A DNA stretch of 64,000 nucleotides from a bacterium (lineage in GTDB: Bacteria > Electryoneota > Electryoneia > Electryoneales > Electryoneaceae): assembly GCA_963675295.2 (NCBI GenBank), contig CAXXKJ010000002.1, forward strand, positions 3,232,001-3,296,000, in the 5' to 3' direction. Both the position numbers and the translations under genes were made by a program. Position 1 is the stretch's first letter; each line of letters opens with the position of its first letter. Under the pieces are notes generated by a model that saw only the letters and a list, made by a program, of their open reading frames with translations, was not told where the DNA came from and did not search any database. Below, piece after piece: positions 28,603 to 42,307 of this stretch.

Positions 28603-29988
28603 ATGACTCGATGCAACCGGGGAGTGCTGATCATTGGCCTTCTGCTTGTGCTGGCGCCAACGCTGGTATTCGCGGGAGGCTTTAATCTTGCCGGTGCTGG
28701 CATGAAGGGTCTGGCGATGTCTGGTGCATTCCGGGCGATCGCGGACGACTGGAGTGCGATGTACTGGAACCCCGCAGGCTTGGCGGGGCAAGGGACGGGG
28801 ATCTATCTCGAGGCGAAGGTCCTCTTTCCGAACACCAGGATTATTCCGAACACGCCGAGCACCGTGCCCGGCTACGACGGCTACTACCTCTATCGGAATG
28901 GGGTGGAACAGTCGTCGGTTAACGGCGGCCGTCCCACCGGCTCTTTCGCCTTCCAGTGGCAGTTCAGCGAAAAGCTGACCGCCGGGCTGTCGGCGTTTAC
29001 GCCGAACGCGCTCGGTGCCGACTGGGAAAACCTTTACCTCGGGCCGTACCCCGGCTACGGGGACAACCCGGAGTATCCGGACCAGGCGTGGATGTCCAGC
29101 ATGTACGTCATCGACATTCACCCGACGGTCGGGTACATGGTGACGGAGAAGCTGTCTGTCGGTGCGGGCCTGTCGGTTAAGGTCGCGAGCATCGAGCTGC
29201 AGTCGCCGGCGTTGGTCCCGGGTGTGAATCCGGCAACCGGCGACCGTCTGCCGCTGCCGGGTTCGCATTACTTCATTGACGCCACGCTCAAGGGCAGCGA
29301 AATCGGTGTCGGGTTCAACCTCGGCGTGCTGTACCATGTCAACGACAAGCTGTCGACGGCGCTGACGTACGTCGGACCGTCCCTGATCCCGATCGACGGT
29401 ACGCTCAGCCAGACCCTCTACCTCCCCGCCATGGCGGGCGGCGGAGCACTGGATGCCGAACCGGATGCCAAGGCGGACTTCCCGATCCCGATGGAAGTGG
29501 GTGCGGGGATCGCGTACAAGTTCACCCCGGAGTTTACCGCGGCGTTCGACGTCAAGTGGACCCAATGGTCGTCGCTGGACGTGATCGACATCGAGCTGGA
29601 TGGCACGGATCCGACCGGCCAGCCGGCGGACGACACGGAGCTGATCCTCAACTGGGAGGATACGGTCCGGTTCAACATCGGCTTCATGTGGGATGTCAAT
29701 GAAGCGGTGCAGCTGCGTGGCGGCTACTACTTCGACCCGTCCCCGATCCCCGGCGAGACCATGCGTCCGACCATTACCGACGTCGCCGACAAGCACAGCT
29801 GGAGCTTCGGCGTCGGCTACGACTTCGGCAATGGCTTCACCGTGGACGGCACGTACCAGCACCTCTGGGGTAACGACAACGAAGCTGAAGCTGCGGACCA
29901 CGACGGCGACGGCCTGTACGACAACGTGCCCGGCACGTGGAACATGCAGGTCATCACCATCGGCATGCAGCTTGGCTACCGCTTCTAA
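28603..29988 (+). CDS. FadL/OmpP1/TodX-family outer-membrane transporter
   Basis: Signal peptide followed by GGFNL..G.K..AM.GA..AIADD.SAMYWNPAGL; WSSLD and WEDT motifs; C-terminal YRF. Confidence 0.85.
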   Translation: MTRCNRGVLIIGLLLVLAPTLVFAGGFNLAGAGMKGLAMSGAFRAIADDWSAMYWNPAGLAGQGTGIYLEAKVLFPNTRIIPNTPSTVPGYDGYYLYRNGVEQSSVNGGRPTGSFAFQWQFSEKLTAGLSAFTPNALGADWENLYLGPYPGYGDNPEYPDQAWMSSMYVIDIHPTVGYMVTEKLSVGAGLSVKVASIELQSPALVPGVNPATGDRLPLPGSHYFIDATLKGSEIGVGFNLGVLYHVNDKLSTALTYVGPSLIPIDGTLSQTLYLPAMAGGGALDAEPDAKADFPIPMEVGAGIAYKFTPEFTAAFDVKWTQWSSLDVIDIELDGTDPTGQPADDTELILNWEDTVRFNIGFMWDVNEAVQLRGGYYFDPSPIPGETMRPTITDVADKHSWSFGVGYDFGNGFTVDGTYQHLWGNDNEAEAADHDGDGLYDNVPGTWNMQVITIGMQLGYRF

Positions 29989-30004
29989 ACGGGAGGAGAC
30001 GACA

Positions 30005-31288
30005 ATGCGTGAACGATTGACACTGTTCGGCCTTGCCGCGCTGCTTCTCCTGCTGGCAGGCTGCGCCGAAGAGATTGAAGCGCCGACTGATGTCTGGGTC
30101 GGACGTGAAGGCACCATCGAAACCATGGCGGACCCGATCGCGGAAGCGTTGAATCCGTCGGACGCCGACGGTGCACAAACCCTGATCTACCTGCCGGACG
30201 GCTACTCTGCGTCCGGTGATGCCTACCCCGTGGTGTACATGCTGCACGGGTACGGTGGTGACGAAAACATGTTCCCGACCATCTTCGGGATCACTGCCCT
30301 GTTCGACGAGATGATCGCGTCGGAAGTCGTCGAGCCGTTCGTCGCGGTCTTCCCGAACGGTGACAACGAACTGGCCGGCACCTTCTACCAGAACAGCCCG
30401 TATCCGCTGGTCGGTGCGTCCGCTGACCGCATGATGGCACTGGTCGGTTCGGTTGAAGCGGCGTACAACGTCAGCACCGATCCGGCCGGCAAAGCGATCT
30501 GCGGATTGTCGATGGGCGGCTACGGTGCCCTCAGCCTCGCGTTGGAGAATGCTGGTGAGTTCGGCTTCGTCGGCGTGCTCTCCGGCCCGGTCAGCTTCTG
30601 GGGCGAACGGACCGCTGATCCGGTGAACATCCCGAACACGGACGATGTCTACGCCGGTATCGAGGAACTCCTGCCAGCCGTGCTCGCCCAGGGTGGCTTC
30701 ACACCGGACCCGAACTGGGATCCCCTGATCCCGGACCCGGACCTGACATCTGCCTACCAGGCGGCGATGTTGAACGGCTTGCAGCAAGGCCCGCCGACGT
30801 CAATGATGTTCGCGATGGCTGCGGCGTTCAGCCCCGGTGATCCGGCGAACCCAGGCCCGACGTACGTCCAGTTCGATCCGAACCTGCCGGGCGTGGAACT
30901 GCCGATCGGTCTTGACGGCGAGATCTTCCTGCCGGTGTGGAACCTGTGGATGGCCCGCGACATCATCGCTCGCCTCTCCACCGATCCCGCTCAGCAGGCT
31001 GCGATGGCCGGAATGGACATCTACATGGCCTGCGGCCTGTCCGACGACCTCGGCCTGTTTGGCGCGCATGCGGTGCTGGCAACAGTGCTGGTAAACAACT
31101 TCGGCGTCGACTTCACCGCCGGTGACAATGTCAACCGCTTCTTCGGCACGCCGAATAATCCGGACGCCGGTTTCCCGTTTGACGGCGGCACGATTGACGA
31201 CGTCTTCGGCGGATTCCCGGCGGGCCACACCGAAGCCGCGCGTGAAGAGCTGCGTTTGATCGTCGAATGGTTGGACGGCAAGTTCTAA
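30005..31288 (+). CDS. Lipoprotein esterase (alpha/beta hydrolase)
   Basis: LAGC lipobox; IYLPDGY...YPVVYMLHGYGG; GLSMGG nucleophile elbow; C-terminal GH. Confidence 0.82.
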   Translation: MRERLTLFGLAALLLLLAGCAEEIEAPTDVWVGREGTIETMADPIAEALNPSDADGAQTLIYLPDGYSASGDAYPVVYMLHGYGGDENMFPTIFGITALFDEMIASEVVEPFVAVFPNGDNELAGTFYQNSPYPLVGASADRMMALVGSVEAAYNVSTDPAGKAICGLSMGGYGALSLALENAGEFGFVGVLSGPVSFWGERTADPVNIPNTDDVYAGIEELLPAVLAQGGFTPDPNWDPLIPDPDLTSAYQAAMLNGLQQGPPTSMMFAMAAAFSPGDPANPGPTYVQFDPNLPGVELPIGLDGEIFLPVWNLWMARDIIARLSTDPAQQAAMAGMDIYMACGLSDDLGLFGAHAVLATVLVNNFGVDFTAGDNVNRFFGTPNNPDAGFPFDGGTIDDVFGGFPAGHTEAAREELRLIVEWLDGKF

Positions 31289-31310
31289 GGGTTGGCTGAC
31301 CAGACAATCC

Positions 31311-31345
31311 ACACCCCGAGGCGAATCGTTTCGGGGTGTTTTTTT
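31311..31345 (+). terminator. Rho-independent terminator
   Basis: ACACCCCGAGGCG-aat-CGTTTCGGGGTGT followed by a T-run. Confidence 0.8.
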
Positions 31346-31574
31346 GCTCTTGCGATAAGGCTGGAATCAGCTTCGTTGACATGCGTGGACGCTCTCACTT
31401 GAATGAGCATCGTGTTAGTTGAGTGCGAAGAATCTGGCGGGATTTTAAGCTGTGGCTGGGTTTGAGACGTGTTTCGTAAGGGGAGTCTAACCCGCCGATG
31501 CGAGGAGAATGGGATTGCAATCGCATGGGTTGCGGAGTCATTTTTACGACCGAGTACAGGGTGTGACGCCAAAG

Positions 31575-31657
31575 TTTGTGATGAATTTCGCAAATAGAGA
31601 CGCCCACCCATTTTTTCAGGGTGCGATTTCTCCAAAGTTTGTGATATTTTACGCAAA
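31575..31657. promoter_or_regulatory. Two Rex/CRP-FNR-like operator palindromes 63 bp apart
   Basis: TTTGTGATGAATTTCGCAAA (31575-31594) and TTTGTGATATTTTACGCAAA (31638-31657), both preceded by CCAAAG. Confidence 0.55.
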
Positions 31658-31736
31658 ACAAGCGGAAGCAAACCGGAACTGGTGATTCGTTCGGCAGATG
31701 ACTGGTTTGTAAGGAACGACACTTTTGGGAGAGCAC

Positions 31737-33095
31737 ATGCACGCGAAGCGCTGGTTGGCATACCTGGCCGTGTTCTCGCTGCTGTTCAGCCTTGGCTACC
31801 TGGTCACCGGGTGTTCGGAAGAAGACGATGACAATCCGGTGGATCCGACAGCTGGGCCGTACTCGATGAGCAGCGAAGAGACCTGCGAAGGGTGCCACAC
31901 CAACGAGGACATGCTGAAAGCAACGGTGGCTGAGGACACGAGCGGTACGTCCGAATCCACGGGCGAGGGTTGAGGCGGCAGCGTCCCCGAGCTGGAAGCT
32001 TGGGAAAAAGTCTACGTTGGTGGTACAGGTGGTGAAATGTTCCTCGCGGACCCGCACGGCACTTTGTCTTGCACCGACTGCCATGCAGGCGTTGAAGGCA
32101 TCAACAAAAAGGCAGACGCGCACGAAGGCGTGATCGCCGCACCCTCGATGAATTACGAGGAAACCTGCGGCCGTTGCCACAGCGACATCACGGCGACGTA
32201 CTCAACCAGCCTGCATCAGAACTTCCACGGGTACGAGACTCTGTTCGAAACGCGTGCCGGGCTAACGTTTGAGGATCACCCGGAGATCGAGGAAGAGTTC
32301 AACAACGAGTGCGGCAAGTGCCACACGACCTGTGGTGAGTGCCACGTCAGCCGTCCCCGTAGTGTGCAGGGCGGACTGGTCCAGGGCCACCGTTTCATGC
32401 CGACGCCGAACCAGAGTGACCAGTGCACCGCGTGCCACGGGTCCCGTGTTGGCGAAGAGTATCTCGGGTCACGTGAAGGGTATTCATCCGACACGCACTA
32501 CCTCCCGCACGGCATGAACTGCGTGTCCTGCCATACGGGTGAGGAGATGCACGGCGACGGTACGGTGTACGAGACGCGGTATCAGGAAAACGACATGCCG
32601 CGTTGCGAGTTCTGCCATTCGACGGCTGAGGACGCGAACATCTACCACAGCATGCACTGGGACGAATTCCAGTGCCAGGTGTGCCACAGCCAGGACTACA
32701 AGAACTGCAACCGTTGTCACGTTGGTGGTACCGGCATCCGTGAGGAAAGCTACATCACGTTCAAGGTTGGCAAGAATCCGATTCCGAACGAACGTGACTA
32801 TGAATATGTCGTGCTGCGTCACATCCCGATCGCGGAGGATACGTACAGCCCGTGGGGCGTTGAGACGTTGCCGAACTATTCAGATTTGCCGACGTGGAAG
32901 TATGCCAGCCCGCACAACATCCGCCGCTGGACAGCGCGGACGGACACGACCGGCGGTCTGACCTGTTCGCAGGCATGCCACCAGTCGGAAGATTACTTCC
33001 TGCGTGCGGCTGACCTTGAAGACATGACCCCGGCGGAACAGGCGGCGAATGTGGACTGCATCGTCCCGGATGGTCCGCCACCGTGGGATGACTAA
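31737..33095 (+). CDS. Predicted selenocysteine-containing multiheme c-type cytochrome lipoprotein (452 aa with UGA79 read as Sec)
   Basis: ORFs 31725-31973 and 32037-33095 are in the same frame and separated only by TGA 31971-31973, giving STGEG-U-GGSVPELEAWEKV. LVTG-C lipobox; 10 CxxCH plus 1 CxxxCH; hairpin directly downstream of the UGA. Confidence 0.8.
31986..32004 (+). promoter_or_regulatory. Candidate bacterial SECIS hairpin
   Basis: CCCGAGCT-GGA-AGCTTGGG: 8-bp stem with one G-U pair and a G-initiated loop; 12-nt spacer after the UGA. Confidence 0.65.
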
Positions 33096-33181
33096 ACAGC
33101 ATACGAAGTAAACCATAGCTAGCCTGTGGCGGGGTATGAAGCGTGCCCCGTCCGGACAAGAAAGAAGAAAGGGAAACCCCC

Positions 33182-34150
33182 ATGAAGTTGCTGAAGTCTT
33201 TGACCTGGATGTTCATTCTTTTGTTGGCGATCGGTTTCGTCGGCTGCTCCGATGACGACGACGATAACGACAACCCGACCGGCCCGACCACGACCGATCA
33301 TTTTGAAGACCTGTTCGCGTTAGACGGCGGTTTTGGCGACAACATCGCGTCTGATGCGCTGTACGCTGAGATGACCGGCACCACCCCGGCCGCCGGCGAG
33401 CTGTTCATGATCGACTTCCGTAGCGCGGAGCATTACAACTACGCGCATATCGACGGCGCTGTCAACTGGGCGATTACCGATCTGATGGACAACCTGGACC
33501 AGATCCCGGCCGATGCGAAGGTCGTCTGCATTTGCTACACCGGCCAGACCGCGTCCCAGGCCAGCTCGGCGTTGAACCTGCTCGGTTACGATGCCTGGAA
33601 CCTGAAGTTCGGTATGTGCGGCTGGACGACGAACGAAGACATCAACCTCGGCAAGTGGCCAAACCTCGCGGAAAATGATGTTCCGATGGTCACCGACCCG
33701 TACACGCTGGACGAAACGTTTGACTATCCGGCCCGTGAGCTGGAAACCGAAGACGTGATGGAAGCGGCGGAGTACTATCTCGACATGTACCTGTCCAACG
33801 GCACGAAAAACATGTCCTGCACCGCGGTCCACGAGCTCAGCATGAACGAAGTGACGATCCTGAACTACTGGAACGTCGACATGTACAACGACGGTCACCT
33901 CGCTGGCGCGGTTCAGGCGAATCCGATCGACATGGACGTTCTTGAAGGCGTCGATCCGGAACTGCCGGTGGTCGTGTATTGCCACACCGGTCAGACCTCG
34001 AGCAAGGTGGTTGCGTGGCTGAACATGCTCGGCTACGATGCCTACAGCATGCTGTACGGCGTGAACTCGATCGATCAGGAGTTCCCGGGCCTGGTGACGT
34101 ACCACGCGCCGGATCAGGACTACCCGTGCGTCGGAACGTTCGACGACTGA
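33182..34150 (+). CDS. Tandem rhodanese-domain lipoprotein (sulfurtransferase)
   Basis: FVG-C lipobox; IDFRSAEHY..AHIDGAVN; two active-site loops, CYTGQTA and CHTGQTS. Confidence 0.85.
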   Translation: MKLLKSLTWMFILLLAIGFVGCSDDDDDNDNPTGPTTTDHFEDLFALDGGFGDNIASDALYAEMTGTTPAAGELFMIDFRSAEHYNYAHIDGAVNWAITDLMDNLDQIPADAKVVCICYTGQTASQASSALNLLGYDAWNLKFGMCGWTTNEDINLGKWPNLAENDVPMVTDPYTLDETFDYPARELETEDVMEAAEYYLDMYLSNGTKNMSCTAVHELSMNEVTILNYWNVDMYNDGHLAGAVQANPIDMDVLEGVDPELPVVVYCHTGQTSSKVVAWLNMLGYDAYSMLYGVNSIDQEFPGLVTYHAPDQDYPCVGTFDD

Positions 34151-34189
34151 GTTTTCTTCTCTCCTCCTCCCCGTTCTTCGGAACGGAGG

Positions 34190-34222
34190 CAGCCGCACCT
34201 GTGATGGGTGCGGCTGTTTTTG
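34190..34222 (+). terminator. Rho-independent terminator closing the cytochrome-rhodanese operon
   Basis: CAGCCGCACCT-gtgat-GGGTGCGGCTG followed by TTTTT. Confidence 0.8.
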
Positions 34223-34250
34223 TTTGTGCGGAAAGTGGTCGACAGCAGGC

Positions 34251-36194
34251 TCAGTTGTCCTGTCGAATCTGAGCGATCCCGCGTTGAAGGCGTCCGGACC
34301 AGTACTCGTCCATCTCGAACGCGGCGGCCTTGTTGTAGTACTGGGCAGCCGTATCCGGATCGCCCTGCAATGTGGCGACCTGTCCGGCCATGACGTAGTA
34401 GGGGCCGGTGTGGTTGACAGCCTGCTTCCACCCGGCTTCGATCAGTTGCGCGGCGCTGTCGAGGTCGTGCTGGCCGAGGTAGTAGTCGGTGAGGAAGACG
34501 AAGTCCATATCCTCGCGGGACCCGTTGCTGATCGCGGTCTGCAGCCAGTGCAGGGCGTCTTCGTACTGGCGTTCGGACAGCAGCAGGCGTCCGTAGAACC
34601 CCTGCGCTGCGGGCAGTGGCGGGTCGGCGTTCGCGGCCTTGGCGGCCATCGTGAGGGCGGACGCGGTGTCGTTGCGTTCCCACGCGTCAATCTGGGCCAT
34701 GCGGTAGGCATAGCGTGGGTTGCCGGACAGGTCCCAGGCTTGCGTCAGGGCGTGGTACTCCTCGTTCGTGCGGCCAGCCTCACGATAGTTGATCGCGAGG
34801 ACTTCCCAGCCGTACGGTGCCCGTCCTGGGTTCCGCTGCAACGCACGTTCGTGGCGCTGTTCGGCGGCATGCTGATGATGCTGCAGCAGGGTTTGCGCGC
34901 CGGCGGTCATCAGGGCGACGACCACGGCCAGCGCGACGAAGGTCGAGCGTGGCACCAGCGACCGTTCACGGGCATACCCGAACAGCAGGAACGTCAACGG
35001 CACCGCCCACAGGCTGACAAGGTCGGCGTCCCGTGCCATCCCGAGGTCCGGGGAAAACACCGCCGCGAAACCGAACGCGGCGACAGTCGCGGTTGCACAA
35101 AACGCAAGACGCGGTGACAACGCGCCGCTGCCAGTCGTGGACGACGGCCGTGCCTGCAGGACCCACGGCAACAGCACAAACACCGGCACCGCCCCGGCCC
35201 ACAGGATCAGGTTCAGCAGGTCGAGCAAGTGCGTGGGTGCGAACAGGGTGTAGCCGTCCGGCGGTGGACTGCCGAGCGGTGCGAGCACGTGGTCCGGGAT
35301 CAACACCGCCGCAGCGATCAGCCCGGCAACCATGGACGCAAGCCACAGCCCCCAGCGCAGCCTGATGGACCGTACCGTCAGCAACAGCAGGAACGCCGGC
35401 AGCAGCACCAGTCCCTGGGCGTGCAGGGCGCTTGTCAACACGACCAGTCCCAGCGCAATCCACGCGTACCCCGGCCGGTCCTGAGCACGCCAGACCAGCA
35501 GACAAGCCCACGCGGTCAGCATGTGCAGCAGCGCGTAGTGTTCGACCAGCCCTGCCAGCAACGGCACCGAACCGATCCCGAAGGCGGTGACGATGGTCAG
35601 CAGGCGGCGTTTCGGGCCGTCGTCATCGCGTACCCACAGCCACCACGCCAGCGCGTAGCCGAGCAACGCAACGAGATCGATCCAACGGAACACGGTCCAG
35701 ACCGTCTCCGCGGACGGCTGCGGTCCACTTAACACCTTCGCGAGCTGATAGTACAGCGGGGCGAACTTGCTGCCTTCGCCGGAGGAGAGCACGATCAGTT
35801 GGCCGTCCCCACGCAGCAGCGTCGCCGCCGGGAACAGAATCAGCAGGACAATCGCCGCGAGGGTGTAAAGGAATACGATCCACAGGTTGGTACGTCGCTG
35901 GATGAACCGGCTGCTGGCAAAGCCCATCAGACCACCCGCCGCAGCGCAGATCCCCAGCCACAGGATGATCTGGATCGGAGTCTGGCCGTACAGGCCGTCC
36001 ACACCCCACAGCCGCCACATCGGCGGAGCGAAGATGGTCCCGCCCACAGCCGTAACCACCAGGATCGCACCGGCCAACGATCCCGTCAGCGACGCCTTCG
36101 GCAGCACAGTCTTCCCTGACCTGCCGCTGGGTGGCTCGGGATGTCCCGCGTCCTGTGGACTACCTGTCTGCTTCCCCCCTGCCATGCTCATCAT
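34251..36194 (-). CDS. Polytopic membrane protein with C-terminal TPR-like repeats
   Basis: About 12 hydrophobic segments followed by helical TPR-like repeats; 4-bp overlap with the upstream deaminase. Confidence 0.65.
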   Translation of the reverse strand: MMSMAGGKQTGSPQDAGHPEPPSGRSGKTVLPKASLTGSLAGAILVVTAVGGTIFAPPMWRLWGVDGLYGQTPIQIILWLGICAAAGGLMGFASSRFIQRRTNLWIVFLYTLAAIVLLILFPAATLLRGDGQLIVLSSGEGSKFAPLYYQLAKVLSGPQPSAETVWTVFRWIDLVALLGYALAWWLWVRDDDGPKRRLLTIVTAFGIGSVPLLAGLVEHYALLHMLTAWACLLVWRAQDRPGYAWIALGLVVLTSALHAQGLVLLPAFLLLLTVRSIRLRWGLWLASMVAGLIAAAVLIPDHVLAPLGSPPPDGYTLFAPTHLLDLLNLILWAGAVPVFVLLPWVLQARPSSTTGSGALSPRLAFCATATVAAFGFAAVFSPDLGMARDADLVSLWAVPLTFLLFGYARERSLVPRSTFVALAVVVALMTAGAQTLLQHHQHAAEQRHERALQRNPGRAPYGWEVLAINYREAGRTNEEYHALTQAWDLSGNPRYAYRMAQIDAWERNDTASALTMAAKAANADPPLPAAQGFYGRLLLSERQYEDALHWLQTAISNGSREDMDFVFLTDYYLGQHDLDSAAQLIEAGWKQAVNHTGPYYVMAGQVATLQGDPDTAAQYYNKAAAFEMDEYWSGRLQRGIAQIRQDN

Positions 36195-36726: not shown

Positions 36727-36803
36727 GACAGTGTTCAGTGGCCAGTACTCATTAATCAGTGGTCTGTGAACCAGACACTCACAACTCACCACTCACAACT
36801 GTC
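36727..36803. repeat. Heptamer-array element bounded by GACAGT/ACTGTC inverted ends
   Basis: (TCAGTGG)-type units followed by (CTCACAA/CTCACCA) units; related to the arrays at 16372 and 46904. Confidence 0.6.
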
Positions 36804-36926
36804 TGCACCCGCAGCCAATGTACAACACGCGGACGCCGGTTTCTCCGCGCGGGCAGCATAATCCCGCCCGCCGGTAATGATCGCACAGCGCAGTACGGGT
36901 CCAATCAATCGCGGAAGGAGGGCACC

Positions 36927-38951
36927 ATGCACAGGGCACTGAGGTTGTTTCTACTGGCCGCACTTCTCCTCGCCTGCGGCACGGTTTACGCCGACGACAC
37001 CGGGAAGATCTGGGGCATGGTGGTTGACAAAGCCACCGGCGAGCCGATCATCGGCGCGAATGTCATCATCGAAGGAACCAGCCGTGGCGCGGCGTCGGAT
37101 CTGGACGGCTTCTTTGTCATCCTCGCCGTTGTGCCGGGCACGTACAACGTGAGCGCGTCGGCTGTCGGCTATGCGAAGGTCACGATCAAGGACGTGATCG
37201 TCGAAGCCGAAAAGACCACCGATCTCGAGTTCGAGCTGGAAGGATCTTCGGTTCAGCTGGAAGACGTCATCCTGGTCTACGAAAAACCATCCGTGGAAAA
37301 AGGTGTCACGTCCAATGTGACGCGGTACAGTGCGGAAGACGTACAGTATCAGGCCGATCCGGATGCTGTGGCCGTTCTAAGAGCCACACCCGGCTTCAAG
37401 GTTGATCAGGAAGGGAAGATCATCATTCGCCAGAACGGCGAGTACATTGGTCTCCCTCGCAACGCACCTCCACCCAGGTCCCCCGTACAGCCTCCGATCC
37501 AGCCTCTGCCGATGGAAGATCGGGAAACCTTCGGCGAGTGGATTCCCAATACGTGGGAGCGTGCTGATGTCAACCCCCTGTCGACATTCTCCATTGACGT
37601 GGACAAGGCATCCTACACACGTACTCGCCGGTATTTACTTGACGACACCCTGCCGCCGTCGGAATCGGTTCGTATCGAAGAACTGGTCAACTTTTTCGAA
37701 TACGAGTATGAGTCTCCGGATCACGATAAACCGTTTTCGATCACGACCGAGCTGGCTGCCTGCCCGTGGAATGAGGATCACCAACTGCTTCACATCGGCC
37801 TGCAGGGACGACAGTATGATTACGATGACATTCCGCCAGCAAATTTCGTCTTCCTCATTGATGTGTCCGGCTCAATGGAACCTGGTGATAAGCTTCCATT
37901 GTTGAAAAAGGGATTGCGGATGCTGGTCGAACGATTGCGTCCGCAGGATCGCGTCGCACTTGTAACCTATGCGGATGACGCAGCCGTTTACTTACCCTCC
38001 ACAAGCGGCAGGGACAAGAATGTCATCCTCGCAAGCATTAATGGCCTTCGTGCAAGTGGTTGGACTGCGGGTGGTGCCGGAATCATGCTAGCGTATGATA
38101 CTGCTGCGGAGAACTTTGATTCCGAACGCAACAACCGTGTCATTCTGTGCACCGACGGCGACTTCAACGTTGGACTGCAATCGACGGAGGCGCTGGATTC
38201 CCTGATAAGCGTCAAGCGGGAAGGCGGCTTTTTCCTCACCGTAATGGGATTTGGTGCCAAGATCACTCAGCACCAGAAAATGGAAATCCTCGCCGACCGG
38301 GGAAATGGTGTCTATTACTACGTGGACGACATCCTCGAGGCGAAGCGCGTTTTCAGCGAGGATCTCGGATCGCTACTGACCATCGCCAAGGATGTCAAGC
38401 TGCAGGTGGAATTCAACCCGGTTGAGGTTGCGGAATATCGGCTGATTGGCTACGAAAACCGGCTGCTGGATGACGAGGACTTCGACGACGACACCAAAGA
38501 CGCTGGCGAATTCGGTGCGGGCCAGTCAGTTACTGTACTGTACGAAATCGTTCCACAGGCAAACCTGCAACGCGCGGGCAAGCGCTTCATGCGCTACCAG
38601 CGCAGCATTTTGACAGAGGAAGCGTTCTGGAGCAACGAGATTGTCACTGTCAACATTCGCTACAAACGCCCGAGCAGTGACGAAAGCACGCTGCTGGTTC
38701 TGCACGGTCAAGCGGACGCATCCAGCCTCGATCAAGCCAGCAGTAACTTCCGTTGGGCTGCGGCAGTGGCTGAGTTTGGTCTGCTTTTACGTGGATCGGA
38801 CCAGAAAGGCAGTGCGACATACGATCACGTGATTGATCTTGCCCGAAACGCGCGCGGAGTCGATTTGGAAGGTACCCGCGCTGAGTTCATTCATCTGGCT
38901 GAACGGGCTCAACTTCTTGCTGAACCGCAGGTCGCGGACGTAGAGGACTGA
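36927..38951 (+). CDS. YfbK-like VWA protein (vWF_A/DUF3520) with an N-terminal carboxypeptidase-regulatory-like domain
   Basis: Signal peptide; GEPIIGANV; PLSTFSIDVD.ASY, DVSGSM (MIDAS), TDGDFNVG, TIAKDVKLQVEFNP and YRLIGYENR motifs. Confidence 0.85.
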   Translation: MHRALRLFLLAALLLACGTVYADDTGKIWGMVVDKATGEPIIGANVIIEGTSRGAASDLDGFFVILAVVPGTYNVSASAVGYAKVTIKDVIVEAEKTTDLEFELEGSSVQLEDVILVYEKPSVEKGVTSNVTRYSAEDVQYQADPDAVAVLRATPGFKVDQEGKIIIRQNGEYIGLPRNAPPPRSPVQPPIQPLPMEDRETFGEWIPNTWERADVNPLSTFSIDVDKASYTRTRRYLLDDTLPPSESVRIEELVNFFEYEYESPDHDKPFSITTELAACPWNEDHQLLHIGLQGRQYDYDDIPPANFVFLIDVSGSMEPGDKLPLLKKGLRMLVERLRPQDRVALVTYADDAAVYLPSTSGRDKNVILASINGLRASGWTAGGAGIMLAYDTAAENFDSERNNRVILCTDGDFNVGLQSTEALDSLISVKREGGFFLTVMGFGAKITQHQKMEILADRGNGVYYYVDDILEAKRVFSEDLGSLLTIAKDVKLQVEFNPVEVAEYRLIGYENRLLDDEDFDDDTKDAGEFGAGQSVTVLYEIVPQANLQRAGKRFMRYQRSILTEEAFWSNEIVTVNIRYKRPSSDESTLLVLHGQADASSLDQASSNFRWAAAVAEFGLLLRGSDQKGSATYDHVIDLARNARGVDLEGTRAEFIHLAERAQLLAEPQVADVED

Positions 38952-40645: not shown

Positions 40646-42307
40646 CTAGTGCAGCAACACGATTTTGTGAGTCGAGCGTTCTTTTCCGGCCAACGTAACC
40701 AGGTATAGTCCCGTGCCCGCGGATACCACTGAATCACGGGGGTTCCAGTTGTGTTTCAGCAATTCGCCGGGCTGTCCATGTAGATTTGCCTGGTAGACCA
40801 GTTGACCGAGAACGTTGTGGATACGGATGTGAGCCTCACCCAATCCGTCTGCTTGCAGGGTGATCCGGAACGAACCGTTGCTCGGATTCGGATAGACAGT
40901 GGCAAGTGTCTGAGTTGCCGGCATTGGATCCGGTTCATCAACGTCGCTGAAGATCTGAGGCTGATACAAGCGGTTCCCGCCGACATTGCAACCGGGCATC
41001 GGCCATTCCAAGCTGTAATCACCACCCTCCATGGGAACATCGTACGCGGCAATCTGCCCATTGGGATTAAACGTCACCATGATCATCGACCCCGCCTCAG
41101 GTGGAAAACAGGCGGTTTGCCCATAAATGTACACCGGGTATGTTATCGGAACGTTGATCGGAAAACCGGAGATAGGTTGATTCAATTCGTAGCCGTAAAG
41201 CTTGCAGTTTGAAGGTGAATTTGGGGATAGCAAGAAGATGCGCGCACTGGATGAACCGATCCTGCGAAGTACAACAGGTGGCTCTCCCGCACCCACGACA
41301 TTTGGCATTTCAATCGGAAATCCGGGGAAGCTGCTCCCATCGGTTCGAAATGCGTATAGATGTTCGTCAAATGGATGAAAGAGAAGCTCAGGAACCGCGT
41401 CCCCATCGAGATCAGCAGCAACAACGTCATAACTAACTTCACTTACGCCGTTGATATAAGGATTGCGAACTGGAAATCCCGACAGAGATTGCCCCTGCTC
41501 ATCAAATGCGTACAATGAGTCCTTATCCACGAAAGTGAGGAACCATCCCTCGGCATCAGAAATCAGTGTCAGCGGTGAGTAAGTGGCGTCCACATCAATC
41601 GCGACAGGATATCCCGCGATATCCTCTCCAGATTGCAGGTATTTCGCCTGGATTGTCGTACCCGTTGTCCAGAATATCGCAGGGTCAGCGTGCCAGTTAT
41701 CGCCGATTCCAAGACAGGGAGCGCCGAAGTAGGCAGCCTCCACGACCCCGGCATATTTGGGAAATCCAGGGAGTGAACTTCCGTCGCCGTTGAGTCCATA
41801 GACCAAAGAATCAGCAACAAAAAACAACTCGTCATAGTCATCATCGTCAACATTGATCAGAACGTGAGCCCCGAATGGCCTGTTCATTGCCGCTGGTGGT
41901 GGCAGGTTCAGATCAAACAGCAAGCGTTCACCTTCCAGCGAGTACACGTAGATTTTGTTTCCCTCGTCCTGTTGCCATAACCGAATAACGAACTCCAGCT
42001 GCTCATCCCCAAGGAGGTTGCCCCAGCGAATCCCCTGGACAAGCAATCCATCCTGACCATAATCAAGCTCAATTGGCCAACCAGGCAGGAACTGGCCGTC
42101 TGTCGTTAACAACGCAATGCACTGGTTCGTACTGACTGAGATCACATCACCATACTCGGGAATCGTGCCCACGGCCAGATTGTTCGCCGTCCCACTTGCA
42201 CCAGCCGGCGAAATCTGCTGCGGCCAACCCGGCCGAAGCTGGGGTTGCCCCATCACGGATAAAGCATAAATCGGCAGCATACTAAGACATATAAAAACTT
42301 TCAACAT
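40646..42307 (-). CDS. Secreted repeat protein (xPGFP/GWP, FG-GAP-like) with T9SS-type CTD
   Basis: Signal peptide; repeated DG..LPG(W/F)P; YPNPSN...GLYLV...HKIVLLH. Confidence 0.78.
   Translation of the reverse strand: MLKVFICLSMLPIYALSVMGQPQLRPGWPQQISPAGASGTANNLAVGTIPEYGDVISVSTNQCIALLTTDGQFLPGWPIELDYGQDGLLVQGIRWGNLLGDEQLEFVIRLWQQDEGNKIYVYSLEGERLLFDLNLPPPAAMNRPFGAHVLINVDDDDYDELFFVADSLVYGLNGDGSSLPGFPKYAGVVEAAYFGAPCLGIGDNWHADPAIFWTTGTTIQAKYLQSGEDIAGYPVAIDVDATYSPLTLISDAEGWFLTFVDKDSLYAFDEQGQSLSGFPVRNPYINGVSEVSYDVVAADLDGDAVPELLFHPFDEHLYAFRTDGSSFPGFPIEMPNVVGAGEPPVVLRRIGSSSARIFLLSPNSPSNCKLYGYELNQPISGFPINVPITYPVYIYGQTACFPPEAGSMIMVTFNPNGQIAAYDVPMEGGDYSLEWPMPGCNVGGNRLYQPQIFSDVDEPDPMPATQTLATVYPNPSNGSFRITLQADGLGEAHIRIHNVLGQLVYQANLHGQPGELLKHNWNPRDSVVSAGTGLYLVTLAGKERSTHKIVLLH

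Follow-up and report, generated by a model that had tools for sequence, protein, structure and literature searches.

We analyzed a 64,000-nucleotide (nt) window of a bacterial genome from the family Electryoneaceae, phylum Electryoneota (assembly GCA_963675295.2, contig CAXXKJ010000002.1, positions 3,232,001 to 3,296,000 of the forward strand), and describe a gene at window positions 31737–33095 (+ strand) in which an apparent stop codon, TGA 31971–31973, almost certainly encodes selenocysteine (Sec), as judged from comparison with related loci. We are highly confident that the locus is a single gene for a Sec-containing lipoprotein with 11 heme-binding motifs, furnished with a putative selenocysteine insertion sequence (SECIS) element. 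We consider it probable that the explanation as a whole holds, namely, that a UGA decoded as Sec completes an 11-heme lipoprotein that would reduce sulfane sulfur supplied by a rhodanese encoded directly downstream, possibly at the cell surface.

An in-frame UGA codon in a multiheme cytochrome gene

The region forms a single reading frame, the sole interruption of which is the TGA at residue 79, and read-through yields a product of 452 amino acids (aa) with 10 CxxCH motifs and one CxxxCH motif. A reading of this DNA from its letters alone (hereafter, the sequence-only reading) had proposed that 2 open reading frames (ORFs) of 82 and 352 aa belong to the same frame split by TGA, and translation agrees. 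As it also described, the upstream ORF carries the export signal, a signal peptide with the lipobox LVTG-C26, and the first CxxCH motif (C50–H54), and the downstream ORF, which starts with MFLADPHG, has no signal peptide and contains 9 CxxCH motifs (at residues 112, 144, 192, 199, 230, 262, 290, 313, and 324) followed by a CxxxCH motif (CSQACH, 410–415). Pfam recognizes only generic multiheme domains in the cytochrome, the model PF14522 (Cytochrome_C7) scoring 46.9 bits against a gathering threshold of 24.8 bits.

To follow the UGA codon among relatives, we scanned one genome per species and obtained 29 related loci, 26 of which span column 79, the matches in the remaining 3 beginning after it. 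All 26 have TGA at this column within G-E/P/D-G-TGA-G-G, with conserved flanks on both sides; 22 were apparent directly in the alignment and 4 were recognized by this pattern, which resolved a small alignment shift. Records of these loci are labeled Thermodesulfobacteriota, Chloroflexota, Krumholzibacteriota, Myxococcota, and Spirochaetota. Within the phylum of the window, a homologue is present in 24 of 79 genomes (E ≤ 1e-20; the genome under study included), and each of the 24 has a single in-frame TGA at the Sec column; this set and the 26 loci share at least 1 genome, the N-terminal sequences of L015 and L053 being identical. In every locus in which the N-terminus was recovered, both the signal peptide and heme motif 1 come from the piece 5′ of the TGA, and lipoboxes are visible in most homologues from the phylum for which the N-terminus is displayed. 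Thus, the check that the sequence-only reading had proposed came out in favor of Sec: homologues retain TGA between conserved flanks, and the alternative that it named, Cys, occurs at this column in 4 of the 5 near-full-length homologues in the protein database (P0029, P0053, P0083, and P0115).

These 5 homologues, which cover 94% to 99% of the query, stand among the best 120 database matches, the other 115 of which cover only the part after the TGA (64% to 82% of the query), in keeping with the earlier suggestion that standard gene callers miss the full gene. A profile search of 1.84 billion representatives recovered 1,731 proteins at E ≤ 1e-3, 676 at 1e-10, and 215 at 1e-30. Among the best 150 representatives at 50% identity, on which we took a census of column 79, 88 start only past the Sec column and represent truncated gene calls, at least 36 of these starts falling within 4 to 7 alignment columns of it; in 14, the column holds Cys. 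Assembly error can be dismissed as the source of the TGA. A second sample from the same study yielded contigs with an identical sequence across the site, and an approximately 93%-identical relative from another study, represented by DNA and metatranscriptome contigs, also spans it, none of the listed differences (40 of 95) falling between 31917 and 32037; metatranscriptome contig X7, which spans the TGA in this relative, cannot show expression or translation.

Selenocysteine machinery and a hairpin downstream of the UGA

The selA, selB, selC, and selD genes, for which the sequence-only reading had recommended a search, are all present in the genome, represented by SelA (439 bits), the wing domain of SelB (54.8 bits), tRNA-Sec (68.6 bits; gathering score 47), and SelD (370 bits). 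The SelD gene (G000:C2:1038834-1039763; L011, at about 1531) has an in-frame TGA of its own, in the context TRCAG-U-ASKL, a hairpin of 9 bp with the loop GUG comes after it, and SelD is itself a predicted selenoprotein. Because TGA terminates 15 of the 39 window ORFs of at least 300 aa, the downstream rhodanese gene among them, the genetic code of this genome is not changed.

Bacterial SECIS elements follow a consensus in which a hairpin with a small apical loop containing a G lies just 3′ of the UGA. A hairpin with a GGA loop had been noted 12 nt after the UGA of the cytochrome gene, and the minimum-energy fold contains it exactly there, formed by CCCGAGCT (31986–31993), GGA (31994–31996), and AGCTTGGG (31997–32004). 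Since the fold of this single sequence is not above chance, comparison with relatives is what decides whether the hairpin is real. In relatives, the hairpin always lies just 3′ of the UGA (9 to 12 nt), in 2 registers differing by one codon; stems of several different sequences are found at this one place, and the loops are mostly GGA, GUU, GUC, and GGU. In the register with the loop at +18 to +20 (37 sequences), 91.9% of the cells are paired, compared with 41.6% to 47.3% when the 3′ partner is slid by 1 to 3 columns, and two-sided changes occur in 6 of the 8 pairs. The covariation score in this register is 0.588, compared with 0.206 for shuffled alignments, and was reached by none of 500 shuffles, although kinship among the sequences can inflate such shuffle statistics and independent events are fewer than the cell counts. 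RNAalifold, unaided, predicts the same helix, and when the 24 loci from outside the phylum are taken alone in this register, 90.6% of the cells are paired and none of 500 shuffles reaches the covariation. In the register of the window, with the loop at +21 to +23 (11 sequences), pairing amounts to 98.9%, compared with 10% to 57% for slid partners, and one pair is represented by AU in 8 sequences, UA in 2, and CG in 1. The covariation that the sequence-only reading had proposed as a check is, thus, present in both registers. Furthermore, the arms GGCUCC/GGAGCC and GGAGCC/GGCUCC trade places between clades, the encoded residues being A-P-L-E in one case and E-P-L-A in the other, an exchange that appears hard to ascribe to protein constraint alone.

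Several observations count against Sec at this position. On its own, the window hairpin folds no better than shuffled sequences (66 nt; z = −1.15; an equal or better fold in 23 of 200 shuffles), and a search of 31900–32100 at E ≤ 10 found no Rfam SECIS family, the only hit being a chance snoRNA match. The fifth full-length database homologue, P0034, reads G-E-G-E-I-R-G-G, with 3 residues (EIR) replacing U, and among the best 150 representatives, 25 have a gap at the Sec column and 23 have another residue (Gly, Tyr, and Ala in 3 each; Leu, Trp, Ile, and Thr in 2 each; His, Pro, Val, Glu, Ser, and Lys in 1 each). In a quick tree with a midpoint root, in which the Sec label requires at least 5 changes, the Sec, Cys, and other forms are interspersed, and some other-residue forms adjoin Sec forms. 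Part of the wider family, thus, apparently does without Sec or Cys, unless gene-calling artefacts explain some of the other-residue rows. Given that distant relatives have other residues or a gap, Sec/Cys marks a large subfamily rather than the whole superfamily. The sequence-only reading had named Trp, Arg, or Gly at this column in homologues as evidence that would speak against Sec; close homologues have TGA or Cys, and it is among distant relatives that other residues or a gap appear.

If the TGA were a true stop, the locus would encode a monoheme lipoprotein and a leaderless 10-heme protein, or else be a pseudogene or contain a sequencing error. The 2 ORFs obtained with translation table 11, the annotation of the downstream piece alone in 115 of the 120 best matches, and the nonsignificant fold of the single hairpin are all compatible with termination, which we nevertheless regard as extremely improbable: TGA recurs at one column between conserved flanks in all 26 and all 24 loci, Cys takes its place in some homologues, the downstream piece lacks a signal peptide and yet needs periplasmic heme attachment, independent assemblies are identical across the site, and the compensatory changes in the hairpin go as far as swapping amino acids. 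Very improbable, too, is read-through of the UGA as a residue other than Sec, whether by a near-cognate tRNA inserting Trp, Cys, or Arg or under an alternative code. Two distant representatives, P0129 and P0151, do show Trp at the Sec column, in P0151 within the context G-E-G-W, but in both, a metagenome gene caller may have translated TGA under table 4. Termination of long window ORFs by TGA, the full Sec machinery with a predicted selenoprotein SelD, the covarying hairpin at SECIS distance, and the alternation with Cys, a classic mark of Sec, all speak against such read-through. We infer, accordingly with the comparative evidence, that selenium is incorporated at residue 79; UGA 31971–31973 would be decoded as Sec by SelB and tRNA-Sec under the direction of the hairpin at 31986–32004.

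Features of the cytochrome–rhodanese locus, in window coordinates
Feature	Position	Strand	Basis or remark
Hairpin resembling an intrinsic terminator (13 pairs followed by a T run) at the end of the upstream esterase gene	31311–31339	+	Terminator scan
Upstream ORF (table 11)	31725–31973	+	82 aa from TTG 31725; 78 aa before TGA from ATG 31737
Predicted gene of 452-aa Sec-containing 11-heme c-type cytochrome lipoprotein	31737–33095	+	Stop TAA 33093–33095; translation and homologues
Signal peptide, lipobox L-V-T-G-C26 (Cys codon 31812–31814)	31737–31814	+	Read from translation
Acidic S-E-E-D-D-D directly after the lipid-modified Cys	31815–31832	+	Translation; resembles Bacteroides fragilis-type SDDDD signal
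Heme-binding motif 1, C50-E-G-C-H54, 5′ of the UGA	31884–31898	+	Invariant in 49 of 49 full-length sequences
UGA predicted to be read as Sec, U79, in G-E-G-U-G-G	31971–31973	+	Translation, conservation, Cys homologues
SECIS-like hairpin, 8-bp stem (31986–31993 with 31997–32004), loop GGA 31994–31996	31986–32004	+	Minimum-energy fold; relatives
Downstream ORF (table 11)	32037–33095	+	ATG 32037, 352 aa
Heme motifs 2–11 (C112 to H415) and OTR-like core	32070–32981	+	Motif positions, fold and profile comparison
Tandem-rhodanese lipoprotein gene, ending in TGA	33182–34150	+	Pfam 3.8e-20, 2 rhodanese domains

Relationship to OTR and MccSep

An AlphaFold2 model of the cytochrome (predicted local distance difference test [pLDDT] 87.6, predicted template modeling score [pTM] 0.81; residues 25–39 and 70–78 below 50) matches octaheme tetrathionate reductase (OTR) of Shewanella oneidensis (PDB 1sp3) with Z 8.9 and a root-mean-square deviation of 4.0 over 250 residues, the next match having Z 4.6 (VIA search); model residues 104–452 align on 1sp3 chain residues 1–437. 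Foldseek returned no match in the PDB at E ≤ 0.001, OTR reaching E 0.063, and a sequence search of the PDB yielded only weak matches to NrfA heme motifs (best E 0.0026). The genome has a true OTR elsewhere (TIGR04315, 579.8 bits; C2:2830572-2831837; L076 1414-2820) without an internal stop, and hhalign aligned the family profile with it at 97.4% (E 9e-12, 231 columns), heme motifs 1, 2, 3, 5, 7, 8, and 9 of the family being in register with OTR motifs. From the fold match and the profile alignment, it follows that the cytochrome family is an offshoot of the OTR superfamily with extra hemes, 11 as opposed to the 8 of OTR. Unlike OTR, it is not recognized by TIGR04315 (cut-off 375 bits), a genome search with which gave no match at the cytochrome gene at E ≤ 10. 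No NCBIfam model passes for the cytochrome, the best being ExtM with 19.9 bits against a cut-off of 800. Across the phylum, 28 of 79 genomes have an OTR match (TIGR04315) at E ≤ 1e-50.

In 49 full-length sequences, 10 heme motifs are invariant, and motif 11 is nearly so, with C414 and H415 never varying and C410 kept in at least 90%. Outside the motifs, 8 His residues are invariant and 2 nearly so, and position 79 is the only conserved free Cys position. Because these 10 conserved His residues face 11 hemes, one heme may lack a distal His, and Sec79 is a candidate ligand or neighbor of that heme. Placement of Sec at or on a heme is, in our estimate, rather unlikely. Sec79 sits in the stretch joining heme motifs 1 and 2, where a disordered acidic linker gives way to the ordered core. 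The “flexible Gly-rich arm” of the sequence-only reading fits the model, in which pLDDT falls below 50 for residues 70–78 and order begins at about residue 81. The corresponding OTR segment, between heme motifs 1 and 2, carries 1sp3 chain residues K56 and C64, reportedly the distal heme-2 ligand and an active-site Cys, respectively. Neither appears to be kept at the aligned positions of the family: in a low-confidence stretch, hhalign puts the OTR Lys56 and Cys64 equivalents at a Gly/Glu position and in a gap.

The precedent invoked by the sequence-only reading, ExtKL of Geobacter (now named MccSep), is a Sec-containing multiheme cytochrome of a different family, and the nearest relative of the present one by profile and fold is OTR. 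Excerpts of PMC13510729 describe MccSep as a tetrameric Sec-containing multiheme polysulfide reductase essential for sulfur respiration, with 5 hemes, Sec325 in a C-terminal Ig-like domain, and a catalytic heme ligated by Cys239; all 637 of its homologues have 5 heme motifs. The 2 families have in common that a c-type multiheme cytochrome contains one UGA-encoded Sec with a SECIS-like hairpin after it, that Sec and Cys alternate among homologues, that the genes (for MccSep, Geobacter sulfurreducens GSU2937-2936; NF040886) are split by gene callers, that the partner is a rhodanese-like lipoprotein (ExtH for MccSep), and that most members derive from uncultured anaerobes of sediments and waters. 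ExtH is named as a rhodanese-like lipoprotein in the reference list of PMC13510729, and the abstract of PMC5877670 gives the cluster as extHIJKL. The 2 families differ in the number of hemes (11 here versus 5), in the position of Sec (residue 79, between heme motifs 1 and 2, versus an Ig-like domain at the C-terminus), and in the presence of a heme-ligating Cys, position 79 being the only conserved free Cys position here. Membership in MccSep/ExtKL was, therefore, considered and rejected: NF040886 (cut-off 250 bits) has no match on the protein at E ≤ 1, none of its 14 weak matches in the genome (E ≤ 10) is at the cytochrome gene, and the 5-heme trait and the Sec/Cys-ligand traits of that family are absent.

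Selenoproteins with CXXCH motifs also include the GSU2204 family (NF041027) and the UshA-like PCGU protein (NF041198), which resemble the cytochrome in these respects, but NF041027 gives no match to it at E ≤ 1 and NF041198 scores 19.1 bits against a cut-off of 275, the match being confined to the heme motifs. In excerpts of a table from a 2026 review of prokaryotic selenoproteomes (PMC13188914), 4 entries contain heme motifs or bear the name cytochrome (ExtKL, the GSU2204 family, UshA-like proteins, and a GenBank-annotated Sec form of OTR); in model searches of the protein or genome, the cytochrome matches none of these. The main text of BSepDB (PMC13326102) does not contain the word “cytochrome,” and full-text literature searches combining selenocysteine with multiheme, rhodanese, or Desulfobacterota found no description of an 11-heme form, which is to be read as “not found” rather than “absent.”

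MccSep, the key enzyme of sulfur respiration in Geobacter (2026), is the only Sec multiheme cytochrome to have been characterized. The present family would be the second Sec multiheme family, unrelated to MccSep in architecture, with 11 hemes, an OTR-like fold, and an N-proximal Sec. It is common, comprising 215 clusters at 50% identity (E ≤ 1e-30) and at least 5 phyla besides that of the window. Because gene callers almost always cut the gene in two, metabolic reconstructions of microbes from sediments and the subsurface do not register the family; its recognition would set thousands of annotations right, supply the anaerobic sulfur (and perhaps selenium) cycle with a candidate terminal reductase, and present enzymologists with a selenol that may act directly at a heme. 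The Chloroflexota homologues (L021, L025, and L027) have a C-terminal low-complexity tail of 100 to 130 residues with repeated D/S-F-W-G, not seen in other clades, which may be a cell-envelope anchor.

The rhodanese partner and a predicted role in sulfur reduction

A tandem-rhodanese gene follows the cytochrome gene after a gap of 86 nt, in which no terminator was found, and its product has a lipobox G-C followed by SDDDDD. Each of the 37 loci checked has a rhodanese gene directly downstream; they comprise the 12 loci scanned outside the phylum (12/12), L015, and the 24 phylum loci (24/24, own genome included). In the 12 outside loci, the downstream gene encodes 1 to 4 rhodanese domains, and in the phylum rhodaneses (23/23), the lipobox Cys and the catalytic C118 and C267, in C-Y/H-T-G-Q-T loops, are invariant. 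The cytochrome and the rhodanese constitute a conserved two-gene module in at least 5 phyla. Because the terminator-like hairpin at 31311–31339 closes the upstream esterase gene, the cytochrome gene begins a new transcription unit, in which it would be cotranscribed with the rhodanese gene; a scan of 31200–34400 for sigma-70 promoters found none, and a convergent TPR gene lies 3′ of the rhodanese gene.

In the Sud–Psr system of Wolinella succinogenes, a periplasmic rhodanese-type carrier passes polysulfide sulfur to a terminal reductase, and the same arrangement, a carrier feeding a reductase, would apply here, with the difference that Psr is a molybdopterin enzyme, whereas the enzyme here would rely on heme and Sec, the module having no molybdenum subunit. 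OTR is not known to be paired with a rhodanese. In the mechanism that we propose, the rhodanese would hold, in the form of a cysteine persulfide, sulfane sulfur that derives from polysulfide, thiosulfate, or elemental sulfur, Sec79 would attack the persulfide to give an Se–S intermediate beside an OTR-like catalytic heme, and electrons from the heme chain would reduce this intermediate, releasing sulfide. The cytochrome would, thus, be a molybdenum-free reductase acting on rhodanese-delivered sulfane sulfur. The odds for such a rhodanese-coupled reductase of sulfane sulfur appear about even to us, and we infer both the substrate and the direction of the reaction from the conserved partnership and the resemblance to characterized systems.

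Two points weigh against this scheme. hhalign aligns Sec79 with a Trp and not with the OTR Cys64 equivalent, albeit with low confidence, and in the window, neither a quinol dehydrogenase gene nor an outer-membrane conduit gene adjoins the pair. A selenoenzyme with another substrate, such as an OTR-like tetrathionate, thiosulfate, nitrite, or hydroxylamine reductase, a selenite or tellurite reductase, or an enzyme that oxidizes, as TsdA does, is the less likely but serious competitor. OTR, which acts on sulfur oxyanions, is the closest match in both fold and profile, and excerpts of PMC13510729 describe OTR as using nitrite and thiosulfate and MccSep as also supporting selenite-dependent methyl viologen oxidation. 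The rhodanese linkage in 37 of 37 loci and its invariant catalytic Cys residues argue instead for persulfide or sulfane sulfur, a bona fide OTR is already encoded elsewhere in the genome, and the OTR Lys56 and Cys64 equivalents do not appear to be kept in the low-confidence stretch of the hhalign alignment. An electron conduit for the reduction of extracellular metals or electrodes, in which Sec would be redox-tuning or structural rather than catalytic, is improbable in our judgment: it would suit an 11-heme lipoprotein with a surface-export-like signal, and MtrA-type, OcwA, and S-layer undecaheme cytochromes match it weakly in structure (Z 3.1 to 4.2), but these matches are far below that to OTR, no porin or MtrB-like partner adjoins the gene in the window, and the obligate rhodanese partner together with Sec/Cys alternation points to chalcogen chemistry.

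Reduction of rhodanese-delivered sulfane sulfur by the Sec cytochrome may take place on the cell surface, since both proteins bear a C-S-(D/E)n motif like the surface-export signal of Bacteroidota, with SEEDDD after the lipid-modified Cys in the cytochrome and SDDDDD in the rhodanese. In the excerpts of PMC5080379, SDDDD is the proposed surface-export consensus of Bacteroides fragilis lipoproteins and drives surface display experimentally; weighing against its application here, the demonstration concerns Bacteroidota only. Two other proteins encoded in the window, one with a type IX secretion C-terminal sorting domain (40646–42307, − strand) and a large vWA/YfbK protein with CarboxypepD_reg domains (36759–38951, + strand), are in keeping with an envelope like that of Bacteroidota (FCB group). 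Given the resemblance of the S-(D/E)n motifs to the signal and the type IX sorting-domain protein in the window, surface exposure may reasonably be supposed, yet we hold a surface location of the pair to be somewhat short of an even chance. Still bolder, and unlikely in its entirety, is a scenario in which Sec79 would be the distal axial ligand, or a gatekeeper, of the OTR-like catalytic heme in a surface-located, molybdenum-free cytochrome–rhodanese machine that respires extracellular elemental sulfur or polysulfide, making it a second Sec multiheme sulfur reductase that evolved independently of MccSep and is distributed more widely; if true, this would be a His/Sec-type heme c site not seen before.

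Gene neighborhoods of the module vary among the loci outside the phylum. Other multiheme cytochromes adjoin it in L016 (5247-5927 and 5950-7908), L017 (2457-3386), L021 (4740-5753), and L025 (9190-10113), with a cytochrome b also beside it in L016; L020 shows the same ORF layout. These cytochromes are possible electron donors, and no equivalent lies beside the window pair. In 2 Desulfobacteraceae loci, a molybdopterin oxidoreductase is encoded downstream of the cytochrome–rhodanese pair (L034, 6217-6792 and 6841-9258; the same layout in L040, 8452-9027 and 9076-11496), split into pieces of 191 aa, with an Fe4S4 domain, and of 805 aa, after which a 4Fe-4S subunit is encoded; this split looks like another uncalled Sec codon. 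A PAS-domain sigma-54 activator adjoins the module in 4 Desulfobacteraceae-type loci (L022, 4127-5524; L028, 4273-5613; L040, 3920-5275; L023, 3316-4674), which suggests sigma-54 control of the module there, and no activator of that kind was seen in the window. Upstream of the cytochrome gene, the window encodes a FadL/TodX-type outer-membrane channel (28603–29988), which the esterase ORF as listed (29693–31288) overlaps by about 300 nt; because the first 99 residues of the esterase match L015 in another frame, its start is probably near 29990.

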